Assembly: GCA_040218735.1 (NCBI GenBank)
Contig: JAVJQW010000019.1
Location: forward strand, 64,001 to 128,000
Direction of reading: 5' to 3'
Source of the DNA: Deltaproteobacteria bacterium
GTDB taxonomy: Bacteria > Myxococcota > Kuafuiibacteriia > Kuafuiibacteriales > Kuafuiibacteriaceae
DNA length: 64,000 bases
The notes beneath the pieces were generated by a model, which ran no database searches, was not told the DNA's origin, and saw nothing but the letters and a program-made list of their open reading frames with translations. Position numbers and translations under genes: made by a program. This document shows, piece after piece, positions 33,216 to 40,242 of the stretch. Within the stretch, counting starts at the first letter, position 1. Each line of letters opens with the position of its first letter.

Positions 33216-34787
33216 CTACGGCTTCTTGCCCGCGAACACGTGCGTCACGATCGTCTCCGGCGTGTTCTTGTCGTCCGGGTTGTTGCCGTTCGAGTGGAAC
33301 GGCTCCTCCGCGCCGCTGACGAGCAGGTCGTTCCACCCGTCGCCGTCGAAGTCCGCGATCACGCCGCCGCCTTCGCCGAAGTCTCGCTGCAGGCCGAGCA
33401 CGCTGTCGTCCCACTGCCACGTGCCGTCGGCCTGGTTCACGAAGAACAGCGTGTCGAACTTGTAGCCGCCGGGGTTCTTCTCCCAGTCGCGCCGGTGCCC
33501 CTGCAGGAAGATCTCCGGCCACCCGTCGCCGTTGAGATCCCCGACCGCGATGCTCTGCAGGTCCACGTTGCCCGCGCCGGTGTTCGTGCTGTCGCCGAAG
33601 TTGTGCCCTGCCTTGCCGTCCGGCCCCATCCCCTCGTTCTCCCAGGTCACGAAGTTCTTCCCCGTGCCGTCGACGTTCCGGAGGATCGCGAAGCTGTAGT
33701 GCGCCTCGCCCGGCATGTCGCGGCGCCCGAGGAAGCCGGCGGAGCCGGCGGAGATGATGTCGTTGTGCCCGTCGCGATCGACGTCCGCGATCACGTACTG
33801 GAGGTTATCGCCGCCGAGACAGCGGTTCGCGAAGCGCTTCGGGTTCGGCGCCTCGTCCGCGCTCGCCCGCCCGTAGTGTTTGAGCGCGAAGTTCGCGACG
33901 ACCACCATCGCCTCCTTCGCGATCTTCCCGCGCACGTTTGCATGCACCTGTCCGTAGAGGAGGTTCTCGCAGTAGTACGTCCCGAACGGCGCGCCCGCGT
34001 TACCGCCCACCGCGATCTCCGGGTACCCGTCGCCCGTCAGATCCCCCGCCGCGATCGTCCCGCCGTAGGACATGCGGTGGCTGAAGTCCTTCTGCATCCC
34101 GCGCCAGCGTTTACCGGTCCATCGGTACCAGAGCGCCTCGCCCGCCTTGTAGTGCTCGGCCTCGCCGCTGCTGTTGAAGATCAGATCGTCCTTGCCGTCG
34201 CGATCGACGTCCGCCGCCGCGAGCCCCATCGACGTCGAGTGGTTCCCGAAGTTCTTCTCCAGGATCGTTCGCTTGAATGTACCGTCACCGCGACCGAAGT
34301 ACGCCGACGTGTCGACGCCCTCCCGCACCTCGAACGCAAAGTCCGCGTGACCGTCACCGTCGAAGTCGCCCACCACGACTTGCGCCGCGCACACGCCGAT
34401 GTCTCGGTACCGCTGCTTCTGCTCGAACCGGATCGGACCGCCCTTCGTCGAACGGCTGAGGAACACGCGCACCTCGATGCCCGGCTGACAGATCTGCTGC
34501 GCGTCCAAGCAGCGCTTCTCGAAGTACCCGGCCATCACCACGTCGGCGCGACCGTCTTCGTCGAAGTCCGCCGTCGCGACGCCGCCCATGTACATCCCGG
34601 GGACGCCGTGGTCGGCCTGAAGCTCGAGCCGCGGACGCGGCACACGCAGCTTCGGCGGCGCCTCGACCTTCGGTTCGGGCGCCGCGGCCTCGACCGCGAC
34701 GGGCGGAGGAGGCGCCGGCGGCGGCGCGCTCGTGCAGGCCATCGACACGACGCACAGGACCCACGCTCGAGACCGGTCCGGAGGCAC
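33216..34787 (-). CDS. FG-GAP/VCBS-repeat lipoprotein (paralogue of 27998-29701)
   Basis: Shares long blocks: PGMY.GG, YGGTIAAGDL.GDGYPEIA.GGN, GGDNLQY, GNVDL.SIAVGDLNGDGWPE, HSNG.NP.D.N. Confidence 0.85.
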   Translation of the reverse strand: MPPDRSRAWVLCVVSMACTSAPPPAPPPPVAVEAAAPEPKVEAPPKLRVPRPRLELQADHGVPGMYMGGVATADFDEDGRADVVMAGYFEKRCLDAQQICQPGIEVRVFLSRSTKGGPIRFEQKQRYRDIGVCAAQVVVGDFDGDGHADFAFEVREGVDTSAYFGRGDGTFKRTILEKNFGNHSTSMGLAAADVDRDGKDDLIFNSSGEAEHYKAGEALWYRWTGKRWRGMQKDFSHRMSYGGTIAAGDLTGDGYPEIAVGGNAGAPFGTYYCENLLYGQVHANVRGKIAKEAMVVVANFALKHYGRASADEAPNPKRFANRCLGGDNLQYVIADVDRDGHNDIISAGSAGFLGRRDMPGEAHYSFAILRNVDGTGKNFVTWENEGMGPDGKAGHNFGDSTNTGAGNVDLQSIAVGDLNGDGWPEIFLQGHRRDWEKNPGGYKFDTLFFVNQADGTWQWDDSVLGLQRDFGEGGGVIADFDGDGWNDLLVSGAEEPFHSNGNNPDDKNTPETIVTHVFAGKKP

Positions 34788-34843
34788 GGTGGATCAGATA
34801 CCACGCGCAGCGGCGGTCACCGAGGCGGGCGGCGAAGAAGGCC

Positions 34844-35164
34844 TCAGTGCGTCGCCGTCACCTTGAGGCCGACGACGGACGCGAGGAGCGTCGCGACGAA
34901 GAACATCCGAAGAGGCGGGAGACCTTCACCCGCGAGCAGCGCCCCGCCGATCGCGCTCCCCACCACGCCGATGCCGACCCAGACCGCGTAGGCCGTGCCG
35001 ATGGGGAGCGTTCGTGTCGCGTGCGCGAGGAGGACCATACTGCCGACGATCGCCGCGCCGGTCGCGACGCTCGGAACGAGCCTCGTGAAGCCCTCGGTGT
35101 AACTGATGCCGAGGGACCACGCGACTTCGAGTGCGCCAGCGAGAAAGAGGACGAGCCACGCCAT
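34844..35164 (-). CDS. gdx: SMR-family guanidinium exporter (Gdx/SugE)
   Basis: 106 aa with four TMs; MAW..L..AG.LEV.W (Glu13); LPIGTAYAVWVGIG; GGAGG SD; upstream guanidine riboswitch. Confidence 0.88.
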   Translation of the reverse strand: MAWLVLFLAGALEVAWSLGISYTEGFTRLVPSVATGAAIVGSMVLLAHATRTLPIGTAYAVWVGIGVVGSAIGGALLAGEGLPPLRMFFVATLLASVVGLKVTATH

Positions 35165-35178
35165 GGAAAATCACCTCC

Positions 35179-35220
35179 ACGGCCCGTCGTGCCTACCTGG
35201 TACGGGTCGTCCTCGTCAGG
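35179..35220 (-). ncRNA. Guanidine-III (ykkC-III) riboswitch
   Basis: Minus strand CCTG-ACGAGG-ACGACCCGT-AC-CAGG-TAGG-CACG-ACGGGCCGT. P1 CCTG/CAGG; pseudoknot ACGACCCGT/ACGGGCCGT; conserved ACGAGG; abuts the SD of the SMR gene. Confidence 0.82.
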
Positions 35221-35296
35221 GCTCTTGATGAGCGTCCAGGAGGCTACGAAGCGACGCGGCACACGTCAACGCTCGACCTTGGGTGTGCCCGTCGAA

Positions 35297-36523
35297 TCAG
35301 AAGTCACGGTACGCAAGGTGCCAACCGCTCGGGACCATCTGGTCGTTGGGTTCGTCGCCGTTGAGTCCGAACACCGCGCCCGCCTTCGACTCCGACGGGC
35401 CGAAGTGCATCGCCGGGTTGCGCGTGCGGACGACGGCGTCCCCGAGCGCGACCGCTTCGAAGGCCACGATCGAACGCAGGTCCTTCGACACCACGAAGCG
35501 GCCGAGCAACCGACCGTCGTACTTGGTGTCGTTCTCCGGGCGGGAAGCGTCGAGGTGGAACTCGCCGGACAGCTCCAGGTGGACGACGTCCGACGCGACC
35601 GTCGACACCTTCGCCTTCAGCCACGAATTCGTCAGGTCCGGCGGGACCCAGGCCTGCCCCTCCGGCGTGAGCAGGTTCGTCAGCCCGAACCGCTCCACGT
35701 ACTTCGCGTCGAGCGATCGCTCGGCGCCCGGCTTCAGCTGCGACGGCACGAAGTCCGCGACTTCCGACTTCTTGATCCACAGGTAGTCGAAGTGGAAGTA
35801 CATCGCGTTGCGCTGGTCCAGGTCCGGGAAGCGCGGGTCCGGAAGCGACCGCTTCGTCACGCGGATGTCGATCACGTCCTCACGCGACGGGCGCCAGTGT
35901 GGCAGCGCGTCACCGGGCCGCAAGGGCTCTTGCAACAGACGGTCGGACTTCTCCATCCGGTCGTAGTCCCGTTTCGCCGCCTTCAACGCCTCGAGCGCGG
36001 ACTCGGGATCGTAGTCCGTGTAGTGCTCGAAGAGCTTGCCCGTCGAGCTCGCGAGCATGATGCCCTGGTACGCTCCCGGGAACGGCGACTGCGCGTAGAG
36101 CCGCTGCATGATCGCGTACTCCCGCTTCCCCGCCTCCTTGCGGTTCACGTACTCCAGGTCGCTCGTCGCGACCGCCACGAAGTTCTCTCGAATGTATTGC
36201 GCCACGCGCGGGTCGTTGCAGACCAACTGCCTGCTTCGTACGCCGTTCTGTCAGCACGCGCCTCGCGGGCCCCCGAAGTACAGCCACAGGAGCAACGGTT
36301 TGTCGGTGCGCTGCGATTCGCGGATGCCCTCGTAGGCGGTCGAGTGCCAGTTGACCGCCTGAAACTGCAGGTCACCGGGGCGGAGCCGGACGAGCTCTTT
36401 CACACGGTCGTACGTGGAAGGGGTGAGCTCTCGGGGGACCGTCGCGGGGTCGATCGCCGGTACGGACGGCGTGCTCGCGCAGCCGAGCATCGCCACGAAC
36501 GGGAGCCACTTCTCGATCCGCAT
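35297..36523 (-). CDS. Probable selenoprotein: thioredoxin-like lipoprotein with Cys-Sec (UGA at 36253-36251)
   Basis: ORFs 36251-36523 and 35297-36226 are in one frame, separated only by TGA: KPLLLWLYFGGPRGAC-U-QNGVRSRQLVCNDPRVAQYIRENFVAV. Lipobox MLGC; SECIS-like hairpin follows. Confidence 0.75.
36211..36244 (-). promoter_or_regulatory. Putative bacterial SECIS element
   Basis: GCAGGC-AGTTG-GTCTGC 6-bp stem (one G-U) begins 16 nt after the UGA, with G at loop position 2; lower pairs GG/CC and CGT/ACG. Confidence 0.62.
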
Positions 36524-36534
36524 CGTCGCCCTCT

Positions 36535-37740
36535 TCAATCGCGCGAGGCCCGCTTCTTCTTCCGCCGCGCCTTGCCTTTTCGTTTCTTCGGCGGCGCCTT
36601 CTTGCCGAGGTCGGGCGTGAGGAGATCTTCCTCTTCGGGATCGAGCCCGTCGAGCGGATCTTCCGGTGCCGGCGGCGGCGGCGGACGACGCATCGCCTCG
36701 CGTCGCTCCGCGGGGGAGGCCAGGTGCCAGTACGTGCGCTTCGCGAGCCGCGCGACGACGTCCTCGGAACGTTTGCGCCCGCTGTTCTTCACCGCGATCG
36801 CGAACACCACCGGCCGCTTCTCGCTCATGTAGAAAACGGAGAAGTCGCAGATGCGCCGGAACTGGGTGCCCGTCTTGTGTGCGAGCGGGATGGAGTCGGG
36901 GAGACCGGCGCGGACGCGGCGCCGGCCGGTCTCGGTGCCGAGCATGACCTTGATCATCGCTTCGCTCGCGGCGCCGTCGATGACCTTCCCGGTGGCGAGT
37001 TGTTCGAGGAGAGCCCCCATCGCGGAGACCGGCGCCGTGTTGTAGCCCTGCGCGTAGTAGTCGTAGAACGCGCGCGAGTAGTCGGAGGTGGTGAACGTGC
37101 CGGGTGGCTCGTCGAGCATCTGCGTGAACTTGAGGAGGCGTTTCTCGAGCGGACGCGTGACGCCGAGACTGAAGATGTCCTGCGGCGAGAACGACGCGGT
37201 GCGGGTGTCGATCTGGCGGTAGACCAGGCGGCGAACGTCGAGGAGCGTGGTGATGGGACCGAAGCCCTCCAGGCCCATCTCTTTCAGCACGGCGTTCACG
37301 TTTTCGAGGCCGACGTGGCGGATGACCATGTCGGTCGCGGCGTTGTCGCTCTGCTGGATCATCGCCTCCACGAGGATGCGGAGCGAGACCGGCGTCCCCA
37401 CGCGAAGGAACGACAGGAGCGGAGCACCGTCACGGACGTCGGCGGCGGTGTAGATCATCTCCTCGTCGAGCGTCGTCTGGCCGGCGCGGATCTGCTTGAA
37501 GAGGGCGATCATCACCGGGACCTTCACGCCGGACGCGAGGTACATCGGGGTGTTCGCGTTGTAGGTGTACTTCACCCCCGTGGAGAGGTCCTTCACGTAC
37601 AGCGCGAACTCGCCGTTGAAGCCCTTGGCGATCTTGACCACGTCCGACTGCAGCTCGACCGGCCACGTCGGCAGATGAGGTTCCTCGGCGCGCGCCGTCG
37701 AAGCCGCGAAGACGAACGTGAGCGCGAGGAGGGGGCGCAC
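36535..37740 (-). CDS. Class A beta-lactamase-like serine hydrolase
   Basis: Signal peptide; ASGVK (SxxK), SDN, HKTG; acidic/basic low-complexity tail. Confidence 0.85.
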   Translation of the reverse strand: MRPLLALTFVFAASTARAEEPHLPTWPVELQSDVVKIAKGFNGEFALYVKDLSTGVKYTYNANTPMYLASGVKVPVMIALFKQIRAGQTTLDEEMIYTAADVRDGAPLLSFLRVGTPVSLRILVEAMIQQSDNAATDMVIRHVGLENVNAVLKEMGLEGFGPITTLLDVRRLVYRQIDTRTASFSPQDIFSLGVTRPLEKRLLKFTQMLDEPPGTFTTSDYSRAFYDYYAQGYNTAPVSAMGALLEQLATGKVIDGAASEAMIKVMLGTETGRRRVRAGLPDSIPLAHKTGTQFRRICDFSVFYMSEKRPVVFAIAVKNSGRKRSEDVVARLAKRTYWHLASPAERREAMRRPPPPPAPEDPLDGLDPEEEDLLTPDLGKKAPPKKRKGKARRKKKRASRD

Positions 37741-37781
37741 CGTCGCGATCCTGCCGGGTCGATCGACGTTCCGCAAACGCC

Positions 37782-38858
37782 TCAGGACCCCTTCTTCGCG
37801 TGATCGGCCAGGATGAGGTCGTACGCCTTGCGGGCGATCCGCGCGATCGCCGCCTCCGAGGACGGCACGGTTCCGCCCTTGGTGCAGGCGGTGACGATCA
37901 TGGGTTTGCCGTCCGGGAGAAACACCACGCCGAGGTCGCAGAGGCGCTCGAACTGACTGCCGGTCTTGTGCGCGACGCGCGTCCCTCGCGGGAGGCGGCC
38001 CAGAATGCGGTGCGTGCTCGTGCGCGCGCCGGTCATCAGCTCGAGCATCTCTTCGCTCGCCTTCGCGGAGACGAGCTGCTTGCGGAGCATCTTCTCGAAC
38101 ACGAGTCCGACGGTCGCCATCGGGGCGTTGTTCACTTCGGTGGCGTAGAAGCGGTCGTACGCCTTCATGAGGTCGTCCTTGGAGTAGGTCCGGCGGGGGA
38201 CCCCGAGCATCTCGTTCAGCTTCGCGATCTGCGGGTTCCAGATGCGGGTCCAGCGGATCGTGCGGACCTCCAGGGGGGTGAGGTCGTCGGCGGTGACGTC
38301 GAGGTTGCGGTAGATGCCCCGACGGACGTCGACCAGGTACGTCAGGGGCGTGAACCCTTCGAGGCCCTCGTCGACGAGGCCGCGGTTGATCGCCTGCAGG
38401 TCGGCGCGCTCCGCGAGGATGTCCGACGCGGCGTTGTCACTCGACCGCATCATCCAGTCGAGGAGGGTGTGGATCGACACCTGCGTCCCCAGCTCGATCT
38501 TGTTCGACCGGGGGCCGCCGTCGCGCAGGTTCTTCTCGGTGAAGGTGATCTTCTCGTCGAACGTGAGCCCGTCGTGCTCCCGCGCCCGAAAAATCCCGAT
38601 CATGAACGCGATCTTGACTCCCGACGCGAGATAGAACGGTTTGCCAGCGTTGAACCCATACCGGTAGCCGCGGTAGGGGTCGGAGACGTAGGCGGCGAGC
38701 TCGCCGGAATAACGACGATTGATGCGCTCGATTTCGCGGTCCAGGTCCTTCGTCCAAGGCGCCGGCTTCAGCTCGGCGATCGGCACGAGCTCGACCTCCT
38801 CGGCGGACGCCGAGGACGCGAACAAACCCAGGGCGATGGCGAGCGCGAAGATCCGCAA
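37782..38858 (-). CDS. Class A beta-lactamase-like serine hydrolase (tandem paralogue)
   Basis: ASGVK, SSDN, HKTG; signal peptide LRIFALAIALGLFASSASA. Start approximate. Confidence 0.83.
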   Translation of the reverse strand: MRIFALAIALGLFASSASAEEVELVPIAELKPAPWTKDLDREIERINRRYSGELAAYVSDPYRGYRYGFNAGKPFYLASGVKIAFMIGIFRAREHDGLTFDEKITFTEKNLRDGGPRSNKIELGTQVSIHTLLDWMMRSSDNAASDILAERADLQAINRGLVDEGLEGFTPLTYLVDVRRGIYRNLDVTADDLTPLEVRTIRWTRIWNPQIAKLNEMLGVPRRTYSKDDLMKAYDRFYATEVNNAPMATVGLVFEKMLRKQLVSAKASEEMLELMTGARTSTHRILGRLPRGTRVAHKTGSQFERLCDLGVVFLPDGKPMIVTACTKGGTVPSSEAAIARIARKAYDLILADHAKKGS

Positions 38859-38883
38859 GAGCGCCGCGAACCTAACACACCGC

Positions 38884-40242
38884 GTGGCCGTCGTCGTGTC
38901 GCTCGCCGCGTTCGTCGGCTGCGCGACGCCGACCGAGTGGCGACGCCAACAGCAGAACGACTTCGAAGACGAAGAAGCGCAGATCGTCGAACGCCAGCCG
39001 ACGAAGAAGAAGGGCAAGCGCAAACGTCGTCGGCGCCGTCGTCGCTCTCGCGACCCGGAGTCGCGCGAGCTCGACGGGCTCGCGTTGAAGCTCGGCGCCG
39101 CCGCGGAGGCGATCGAGAACCCGTGCAAGAACCCGCTGTGCACGAGCCGGGCGCTCGACCCATTCTTCAAGAAGCTCGACGAGATCCAGAAGGACCGTGA
39201 CGGACACGCACGCGTTCTGCACCTCGGCGACTCACACATCGCGGCCGACTACATCACGCGCGTCGTGCGGCGCCGTCTGCAGGAGCGGTTCGGCAACGGC
39301 GGGCGCGGCTTCGTCGCGATCGATCAGCGCGCACGCTACGGCGGTCGGCGCCTCAAACGCGCCGGCTTCACGCGGACGCGCATCGTCGACAAGGGCCACG
39401 GCGGCGAGCCGTTCGGCTTCTCCGGTATGGCGATCCACGCTGCGCGCGGCGGTGCGAAGGTTTCGTTCGAGCTGGAGCCGGAGGACGACGACCTCGTCGT
39501 CTACTACCTCGCCGAGCGCTCCGGCGCGGAGGTGAAGATCTACGTCGAGAAGGAGGAGGTCGGCACGCTCGACACCCGCGCGCGCAACGTCGCGAGTGAG
39601 ACGAAGCGCTTCGAGATCCCGATGCACCGCCTCGGCGGCGCGACGCCGCCCGAGTGGATGGAGATGGTCACGGAGTCGCGCGGCCCGACGTTCATGGGGC
39701 TGTCGTTCGAGTCGATCGAGCCCGGCGTCATCTACGACTCGATCGGCCCCGTCGGCGCCGACGCGCGGGTGTACCTCAGCCTCGACAAGGAGAGCCTGCG
39801 CGACCACATGAAGGCGGCGAAGCCGAACCTCGTGGTGCTGATGGTCGGCGGCAACGACGCGCTGATGGTGCGGCAGAACAAACGCACGCTCGCGCAGGTG
39901 AAGAAGGATCACGTCGCGTTGATCCGCCGCCTCAAGAAGTACGCGCCGCAGTCGGCGTGCCTGATGTTCGGACCGATGGACGCCGCCGAGCGCCTCGACG
40001 ACGGCACCGTCGTCACGAAACGCTTCGTCCCGGAGATCAACGAGATGCAGCGCGAGGTCGCGAAGGAGGAGGGGTGCGCGTTCTGGGACACGTTCGCCTC
40101 GATGGGCGGCCCCGGCGCGTTCGGCGTGTGGCTCGAGGAGGGCATCATGAACCAGGACCTCGTGCACCCGCGCTCCAAGGGCGGCGATCTCCTGGGGCAC
40201 CTCTTCGCGCGCGCCCTGATGGACGCGTACCTCGGGCGATGA
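38884..40242 (+). CDS. SGNH/GDSL hydrolase-family lipoprotein (possible peptidoglycan O-acetyl transferase/esterase)
   Basis: Lipobox FVGC; LHLGDSH, GGNDA and DLVHP catalytic blocks. Confidence 0.82.
   Translation: MAVVVSLAAFVGCATPTEWRRQQQNDFEDEEAQIVERQPTKKKGKRKRRRRRRRSRDPESRELDGLALKLGAAAEAIENPCKNPLCTSRALDPFFKKLDEIQKDRDGHARVLHLGDSHIAADYITRVVRRRLQERFGNGGRGFVAIDQRARYGGRRLKRAGFTRTRIVDKGHGGEPFGFSGMAIHAARGGAKVSFELEPEDDDLVVYYLAERSGAEVKIYVEKEEVGTLDTRARNVASETKRFEIPMHRLGGATPPEWMEMVTESRGPTFMGLSFESIEPGVIYDSIGPVGADARVYLSLDKESLRDHMKAAKPNLVVLMVGGNDALMVRQNKRTLAQVKKDHVALIRRLKKYAPQSACLMFGPMDAAERLDDGTVVTKRFVPEINEMQREVAKEEGCAFWDTFASMGGPGAFGVWLEEGIMNQDLVHPRSKGGDLLGHLFARALMDAYLGR

Follow-up and report, generated by a model that had tools for sequence, protein, structure and literature searches.

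Does an in-frame TGA on a Deltaproteobacteria contig end a short gene, or does it encode selenocysteine (Sec) inside a longer one? The TGA lies in contig JAVJQW010000019.1 of Deltaproteobacteria bacterium (GTDB phylum Myxococcota; assembly GCA_040218735.1). We analyzed positions 64,001 to 128,000 of this contig, a stretch of 64,000 nucleotides (nt) called the window here; all coordinates are those of the window, and the gene in question is on its minus strand. An earlier reading of the same DNA (the original prediction) proposed that the region 35297..36523 encodes a hidden exported selenoprotein with a Cys-Sec motif in a thioredoxin-like fold. We found that the region is very likely a single gene for a genuine selenoprotein.

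A single TGA interrupts one reading frame

Two open reading frames (ORFs) are called at the locus with translation table 11, 36251..36538 (95 amino acids, aa) and 35297..36226 (309 aa). As the original prediction had noted, the sequence and the ORF table place both in one common frame, which is broken only once, by the TGA at 36253-36251 directly behind a Cys codon, TGC (36256-36254). Translation through this TGA reproduced exactly the predicted 408-aa product with Cys90-Sec91. The complete gene (35297..36523) would thus have 408 codons, with the internal UGA read through as the codon for Sec91 (36251..36253), followed by a terminal TGA stop (35299-35297). It starts with an ATG (36523-36521) that has a Shine-Dalgarno-like AGAGGG (36529..36534) 5 nt on its 5' side. 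The stop codon (36537-36535) of an upstream beta-lactamase-family gene adjoins the AGAGGG and is 11 nt from the ATG.

The locus can also be read as terminating at the UGA, giving either two genes (a 90-aa exported peptide and a separately started 309-aa protein) or a pseudogene. Gene callers and GenBank annotate it in this way, and the final stop of the gene is likewise TGA. The expectation that standard annotation would miss the gene was borne out: GenBank has the fragments of this family as "hypothetical protein", e.g., MEQ9501841.1 (309 aa) and MGB0776068.1 (86 aa). However, in line with the original prediction, the 309-aa ORF has no convincing start of its own. Its TTG "start" is a UUG inside the loop of the hairpin described below, and the predicted restarts vary from locus to locus among the relatives (query starts 100-157).

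The in-frame TGA is conserved in four phyla

We searched 41 related genomes in six frames and found a match in four, including the window's own genome. The relatives were 69%, 43% and 30% identical to the window protein, and homologues aligned across its residues 14-408. Each match had exactly one internal TGA. In the relatives the TGA was at the same column, in the context GPRGAC-TGA-QNG in two and HPLACT-TGA-NNG in the third (locus L025).

We also scanned GTDB species, each represented by one genome, for the motif [LM]WLYFG[DG]P[RL]. It occurred in 24 stretches, and we confirmed 21 of them as relatives (including L023 and L024, contigs already found by the six-frame search). All 21 loci had Cys-TGA followed in the same frame by [QN]NGxKTRQ. 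Cys90 was invariant in these loci and in our alignment A2, and protein conservation extended to either side of the TGA (21/21 loci; alignment A4), also in the part that separates the UGA from potential restarts. The scan found no version of the close Cys-Sec subfamily with a Cys codon in place of the TGA. The true stop was TAA or TAG in 13 and TGA in 7 of the 20 loci that reached their end. The original prediction had looked to homologues for a TGA at the Sec position and for one frame across it; all 21 close relatives had TGA there, none had an ordinary residue, and the frame was one throughout. Recurrence of the TGA column in the window, in the 21 loci and in L025 is more than chance would give.

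By record title and NCBI taxonomy, the carriers belong to Myxococcota (Myxococcales), Armatimonadota (including Fimbriimonadaceae), Verrucomicrobiota (Akkermansiaceae, Rubritalea profundi and Oceaniferula spumae) and Planctomycetota (including Rohdeia mirabilis). One further contig, L042, is titled uncultured Thermodesulfobacteriota. By eye, its gene copy is far closer to the Rubritalea copies (L039 and L044) than to all others, which could mean that the contig was mis-binned or transferred recently.

Protein databases contained the halves of this gene. A phmmer search of 1.84 billion representative proteins gave 238 matches at E <= 0.001, and we classified the best 150 of these 238. They comprised 80 C-terminal-only ORFs, 35 N-terminal-only ORFs, 34 proteins spanning the site and 1 unclear case. 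In 30 of the 35 N-terminal pieces the last residue was Cys, at exactly the position preceding Sec, and the usual ending was ...WLYFG[DG]P[RL]GxC; two ended in GCT. These ends are the footprint of gene callers halting at a conserved UGA. A profile search with the window protein, in which 8000 candidates were scored, returned 7 family members and nothing new.

We also compared contigs that cover the gene from four other public runs, belonging to four studies. No difference was listed at 36251-36253 (four lesser-supported differences were outside the listing). Of the 39 differences listed in the gene, those at third codon positions were 11/15 upstream and 21/24 downstream of the UGA, in excess of one third on both sides (binomial p of 0.002 and 6e-8, respectively). 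This bias indicates purifying selection on one continuous frame, which runs on across the UGA.

The TGA is not a lesion; a lesion would not last across four phyla. Together with the variable restarts and the conservation ahead of them, these results make termination at the UGA, whether as two genes or as a pseudogene, highly improbable.

A conserved hairpin follows the UGA

We found that the RNA 3' of the UGA has features of a bacterial Sec insertion sequence (SECIS). A hairpin with a 6-bp stem, GCAGGC/GUCUGC, and the loop AGUUG (36218..36234) begins 16 nt 3' of the UGA, as the original prediction had it. Position 2 of the 5-nt loop is G, followed by U, and the distance from UGA to loop is 22 nt. 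The bacterial SECIS model has a loop of 3-9 nt, a G within the first two loop positions and a UGA-to-loop distance of 16-37 nt (PMC13188914), so the geometry is within the published constraints.

The helix is supported by covariation. In a gap-free alignment of 22 genes over the 75 nt that surround the UGA, the 6-bp helix was paired in 90.9% of cells, and three of its pairs varied on both sides (CG 10/GC 3; CG 10/AU 7/GC 3/GU 2; AU 19/CG 3). The covariation score of the whole tested structure was 0.365, compared to at most 0.097 when the partners were slid by 1-3 columns, and none of 500 shuffles reached 0.365. RNAalifold independently gave the same core helix. The covarying changes swap one Arg codon family for another or fall on the third positions of Thr/Ser codons, and they track the residue that follows Val (Cys, Trp, Phe or Ala). 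Conservation of the peptide alone is therefore insufficient as their cause.

Several observations weigh against a SECIS at this site. The 60 nt 3' of the UGA fold at -18.8 kcal/mol, but the hairpin region gains nothing in stability over shuffled sequence (z of -0.15; 80/200 shuffles fold at least as well). The consensus energy from RNAalifold is weak (-1.82 kcal/mol), a proposed lower helix was paired in only 69.7% of cells, and there was no Rfam match at E <= 10 within 36100-36350. In addition, conservation of the hairpin could be partly due to the conserved peptide TRQ[LF]V.

The genome encodes the Sec decoding machinery

The original prediction depended on Sec machinery in the genome, and this was found. 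The 11.6-Mb source genome contains selA (493 bits), selB (341 bits), selD (326 bits) and tRNA-Sec (70.4 bits), all above curated cut-offs. Five of five other carrier genomes tested also had selA and selB above cut-off, making six carriers with the source genome. The selD gene of the source genome (G000:C18:152317-153240, locus L010, outside the window) has one in-frame TGA itself, so the organism has at least one classical selenoprotein besides the product of the window gene.

These results bear on whether an ordinary tRNA (Trp, Cys or Gly) might read the UGA, by near-cognate suppression or in a variant code, and insert something other than Sec. We infer the residue inserted at the UGA, and the thermodynamic signal of the hairpin is weak, which leaves some room for such decoding. 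However, TGA is a real stop in the window gene and in 7/20 relatives, selA and selB accompany the gene in all six carriers tested, and the source genome has a selD with a classical Sec-TGA. Furthermore, Cys is the commonest residue at the column in the relatives that lack the TGA (among the best 150 of the 238 phmmer matches). Decoding by an ordinary tRNA is scarcely credible given these findings. We propose instead that SelB with Sec-tRNA would decode the UGA at codon 91, guided by the hairpin 16 nt downstream.

Cys90-Sec91 is predicted at the active-site position of a thioredoxin fold

We built an AlphaFold model of the window protein with a 46-sequence alignment (A4). The model was confident (mean predicted local distance difference test score, pLDDT, of 92.6; predicted template modeling score, pTM, of 0.88). 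In the model, residues 52-193 (35945..36370) form a single thioredoxin fold that spans the UGA position. Cys90-Sec91 lies between a strand (residues 77-82) and a helix (residues 92-102), where thioredoxin folds hold CxxC. The original prediction had placed the break in the frame at a thioredoxin redox motif, and the model agrees in putting Cys-Sec at the classical active-site position. Because the UGA falls between the first strand and the first helix, termination there would cut the thioredoxin fold in two.

Among solved structures, the chains most similar to this fold are thioredoxin-like domains that are exported or luminal. The best was 3f9u_B (score 13.8; root-mean-square deviation 3.5 over 127 aligned residues; Foldseek E of 4.3e-4 to 3f9u), followed by AGR3 (11.8), DsbH (11.2), the UAS domain of UBXD7 (9.7) and the C-terminal domain of DsbD (8.9).

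The rest of the protein is a beta-rich domain of ~210 aa (about residues 200-408; 35300..35926) with no assigned fold family. We found no convincing solved structural relative for it, in keeping with the large uncharacterized C-terminal domain foreseen from the sequence; the weak matches that it has among solved structures are to small barrels of the ligand-binding or membrane kind.

The protein is probably exported and lipid-anchored, judging from its N-terminal sequence. The N-terminus reads MRIEKWLPFVAMLG-C by eye, with a lipobox-like A-M-L-G-Cys15 that would close a lipoprotein signal peptide (36479..36523, predicted from the translation). Myxococcota relatives likewise have a Cys behind a hydrophobic stretch at the N-terminus. 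Relatives from other phyla have ordinary signal-peptide-like N-termini.

Possible function of the Cys-Sec pair

Our preferred explanation, which we consider probable as a whole, is that the gene encodes an exported two-domain Cys-Sec selenoprotein that works as a thiol/selenol oxidoreductase. The adjacent Cys90-Sec91 of the exported, probably lipid-anchored product would stand in for the CxxC of the thioredoxin fold. Sec91 would be the reactive, attacking residue of a periplasmic enzyme, and Cys90 would resolve it to a vicinal selenenylsulfide. The C-terminal beta domain, seen in this family only, would hold a substrate or a partner. Taken by itself, the oxidoreductase activity is on balance favored by the modeled fold and the motif.

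The protein might instead be a real selenoprotein in which Cys-Sec is a ligand for soft metals or metalloids, or a redox or ligand sensor (Hg, As, Cu or organometals), with the beta domain as a binding barrel. Most of the bacterial "CU" families catalogued in Table 1 of PMC13188914 sit in organometallic or metal contexts, namely SaoL, SaoC, HgcA, MbdU and a 2Fe-2S-binding protein. The barrels among the weak matches of the C-terminal domain would suit this idea, and so would relatives of the module that face outward on Ser/Thr kinases and on extracytoplasmic function (ECF) sigma-linked proteins (P0019 and P0145). On the other hand, Cys-Sec is exactly at the position of the redox motif of thioredoxin-fold enzymes, and 9/34 site-spanning relatives among the best 150 of 238 matches have CxC, which is redox-type spacing. 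We also analyzed neighborhoods, using Pfam on 45 ORFs picked from 87 listed in ten loci, and found no metal-resistance or transport genes conserved nearby. We regard a metal-ligand or sensor role as unlikely, and a role of the Cys-Sec pair in thiol/selenol chemistry as the better explanation.

Some results speak against an oxidoreductase. No conserved neighbor or electron donor was present across the ten loci (45 ORFs). The match to Pfam Thioredoxin_7 (PF13899) was sub-threshold (14.3 bits vs a cut-off of 27; E of 0.045). Among the 34 site-spanning relatives (best 150 of 238), 22 have a residue other than Cys at the Sec column (S in 6, D in 5, A in 3, G in 3, R in 2, and N, Q and V in 1 each), so the wider superfamily does not always depend on a redox centre. 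The remaining 12 have Cys there, as C-x-C in 9 and x-x-C in 3. The two relatives with Arg (P0048 and P0082) are distant (<=27% identity) and outside the Cys-Sec subfamily.

Sensor-like fusions point in the same direction. The two-domain module occurs without Sec on kinases (P0019, P0022, P0033, P0102 and P0132) and in sigma/anti-sigma-like fusions (P0145 and P0106). In these proteins, of which P0019 and P0145 were run against Pfam, the module follows a membrane span and makes up the part of the Ser/Thr kinase or ECF-sigma-linked protein outside the cytoplasm, which suggests a sensor role for the module there. The Cys-Sec form is one branch, apparently the commonest, of an extracytoplasmic module for which redox activity is not universal.

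A second Sec-containing branch has the motif GHP[LM][GA]-C-T-U (L025:631-1851, minus strand; P0134; P0151). Its Cys is two residues before Sec rather than adjacent, and the RNA 3' of its UGA folds differently.

Relationship to known selenoproteins and selenoprotein N

We found that the family is very probably uncatalogued. A 2026 review of prokaryotic selenoproteomes gives 119 families with motif and domain identifiers (PMC13188914, Table 1). None of these 119 rows fits the window protein by motif and domain identifier, and no row joins a thioredoxin-like fold with CU. The CU rows of the table are SaoL, SaoC, HgcA, MbdU, KCU-star and 2Fe-2S-binding form 2; SaoB is CUxxT (PMC13188914). These catalogued proteins share the adjacent Cys-Sec and a bacterial SECIS with the window protein (PMC13188914) but differ in fold and architecture. 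Nearly all have NCBIfam models, none of which matches the window protein; our NCBIfam scan gave 0 families at E <= 1. The text of the review (PMC13188914) mentions neither selenoprotein N nor the phyla found here. The new deep-Sep families given in PMC12013277 come from Desulfo- genomes.

Other thioredoxin-like proteins are also distinct. Bacterial selenoproteins of this kind (Trx, DsbA-like, TlpA-like and Sec.1/Sec.2) have Sec in the redox motif and many are exported, like the window protein. However, their spacing is UxxC, CxU or UxC rather than C-U, and no description of them includes this C-terminal domain. The domains Thioredoxin_7, DsbD-gamma, DsbH, AGR-ERp18 and UAS have CxxC, in contrast to C-U here and C-x-U or C-x-C in relatives, and they lack the family-specific C-terminal domain. 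The window protein had no match to Pfam PF00085, PF13098, PF01323, PF13192 or PF08534, the families of the thioredoxin-like selenoproteins named above. A sequence-profile search of the PDB gave two marginal thioredoxin-like matches only (E of 0.17 and 0.19). Mammalian thioredoxin reductase has the C-terminal centre GCUG (PMC12839072). Its vicinal Cys-Sec pair resembles that of the window protein, but is on the flexible C-terminal tail of a flavoenzyme. The window protein has its pair at an internal position within a thioredoxin fold, and it has no flavin domain. The GCUG centre cycles as a selenenylsulfide, the chemistry that we propose for Cys90-Sec91.

Selenoprotein N (SELENON) is a membrane-tethered protein of the endoplasmic reticulum (ER) whose luminal, thioredoxin-like region contains adjacent Cys-Sec as SCUG, its proposed redox centre (PMC12839072). 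Adjacent Cys-Sec would be the redox centre of the window protein too. Like SELENON in the ER lumen, the window protein would be tethered to a membrane and face an oxidizing compartment, in its case the periplasm. The two differ in the flanks of the pair (S-C-U-G vs A-C-U-Q) and in the position of the SECIS, which is in the 3' untranslated region of SELENON and in frame in the window gene. The EF-hand and type-II transmembrane segment of SELENON have no counterpart in the window protein (no EF-hand by Pfam; lipoprotein-like N-terminus). The window protein, unlike SELENON, also has a ~210-residue beta domain behind the thioredoxin fold. SELENON ends soon after its Sec region.

A language-model search for look-alikes of P0031, a Cys-containing full-length relative, returned "Selenoprotein N" (98% Eukaryota) as the top cluster, with a score of 0.89 and 183/256 features shared; P0031's own bacterial family clusters came next at 0.88. 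In this tool a score below 0.9 is a lead only, and at least 170 shared features are typical of true family members. The downstream ORF of the window gave unnamed bacterial clusters only. In full-text literature, two short Sec-flanking strings were unmatched, no paper paired selenoprotein N with a UAS domain, and there was no relevant report on prokaryotic SELENON homologues. We give about even chances to the notion that the family is homologous to SELENON, as a prokaryotic relative with a vicinal Cys-Sec thioredoxin module in oxidizing extracytoplasmic compartments.

Selenoproteins are routinely lost in annotation. This family, whose members are filed in pairs as hypothetical fragments, reaches across at least four phyla and includes three cultured species (Oceaniferula spumae NT6N, Rubritalea profundi SAORIC-165 and Rohdeia mirabilis Pla163). 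It combines an unusual thioredoxin-fold active site, a vicinal Cys-Sec that is never Cys-replaced in 21 close relatives, with a new accompanying domain. If the kinship with SELENON is true, it would be the first SELENON-like selenoprotein recognized in bacteria, present in cultured organisms. It would then offer a tractable bacterial system in which to look for the catalytic reaction, and the substrates, of a human protein that is mutated in SEPN1-related myopathies, and would suggest a bacterial origin of SELENON.

Genomic neighborhood

Our scan of 34700-39400 for promoters and terminators gave a single terminator-like site, located far upstream, and nothing promoter-like, and no public RNA runs were listed as containing the stretch. 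Downstream of the selenoprotein gene, on the minus strand, are genes for a 106-aa SMR-family transporter (34844-35164) and, further on, a 523-aa FG-GAP-repeat protein whose N-terminus resembles that of a lipoprotein (33216-34787). Upstream on the same strand are tandem class-A beta-lactamase-family (PF13354) genes (36535-37776 and 37782-39239). The arrangement of beta-lactamase, selenoprotein and SMR genes is not kept in other phyla. In two Armatimonadota loci (L028:2724-3878 and L038:2751-3902), a gene for a pyridoxal phosphate-dependent enzyme of Cys/Met metabolism is divergently upstream of the selenoprotein gene; we did not see it in other phyla. Of the two beta-lactamase-family genes in the window, the nearer encodes a protein whose C-terminal tail is rich in Lys and Arg. 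A long N-terminal extension rich in Arg and Ser, which may reflect an over-called start, is present in the farther ORF.

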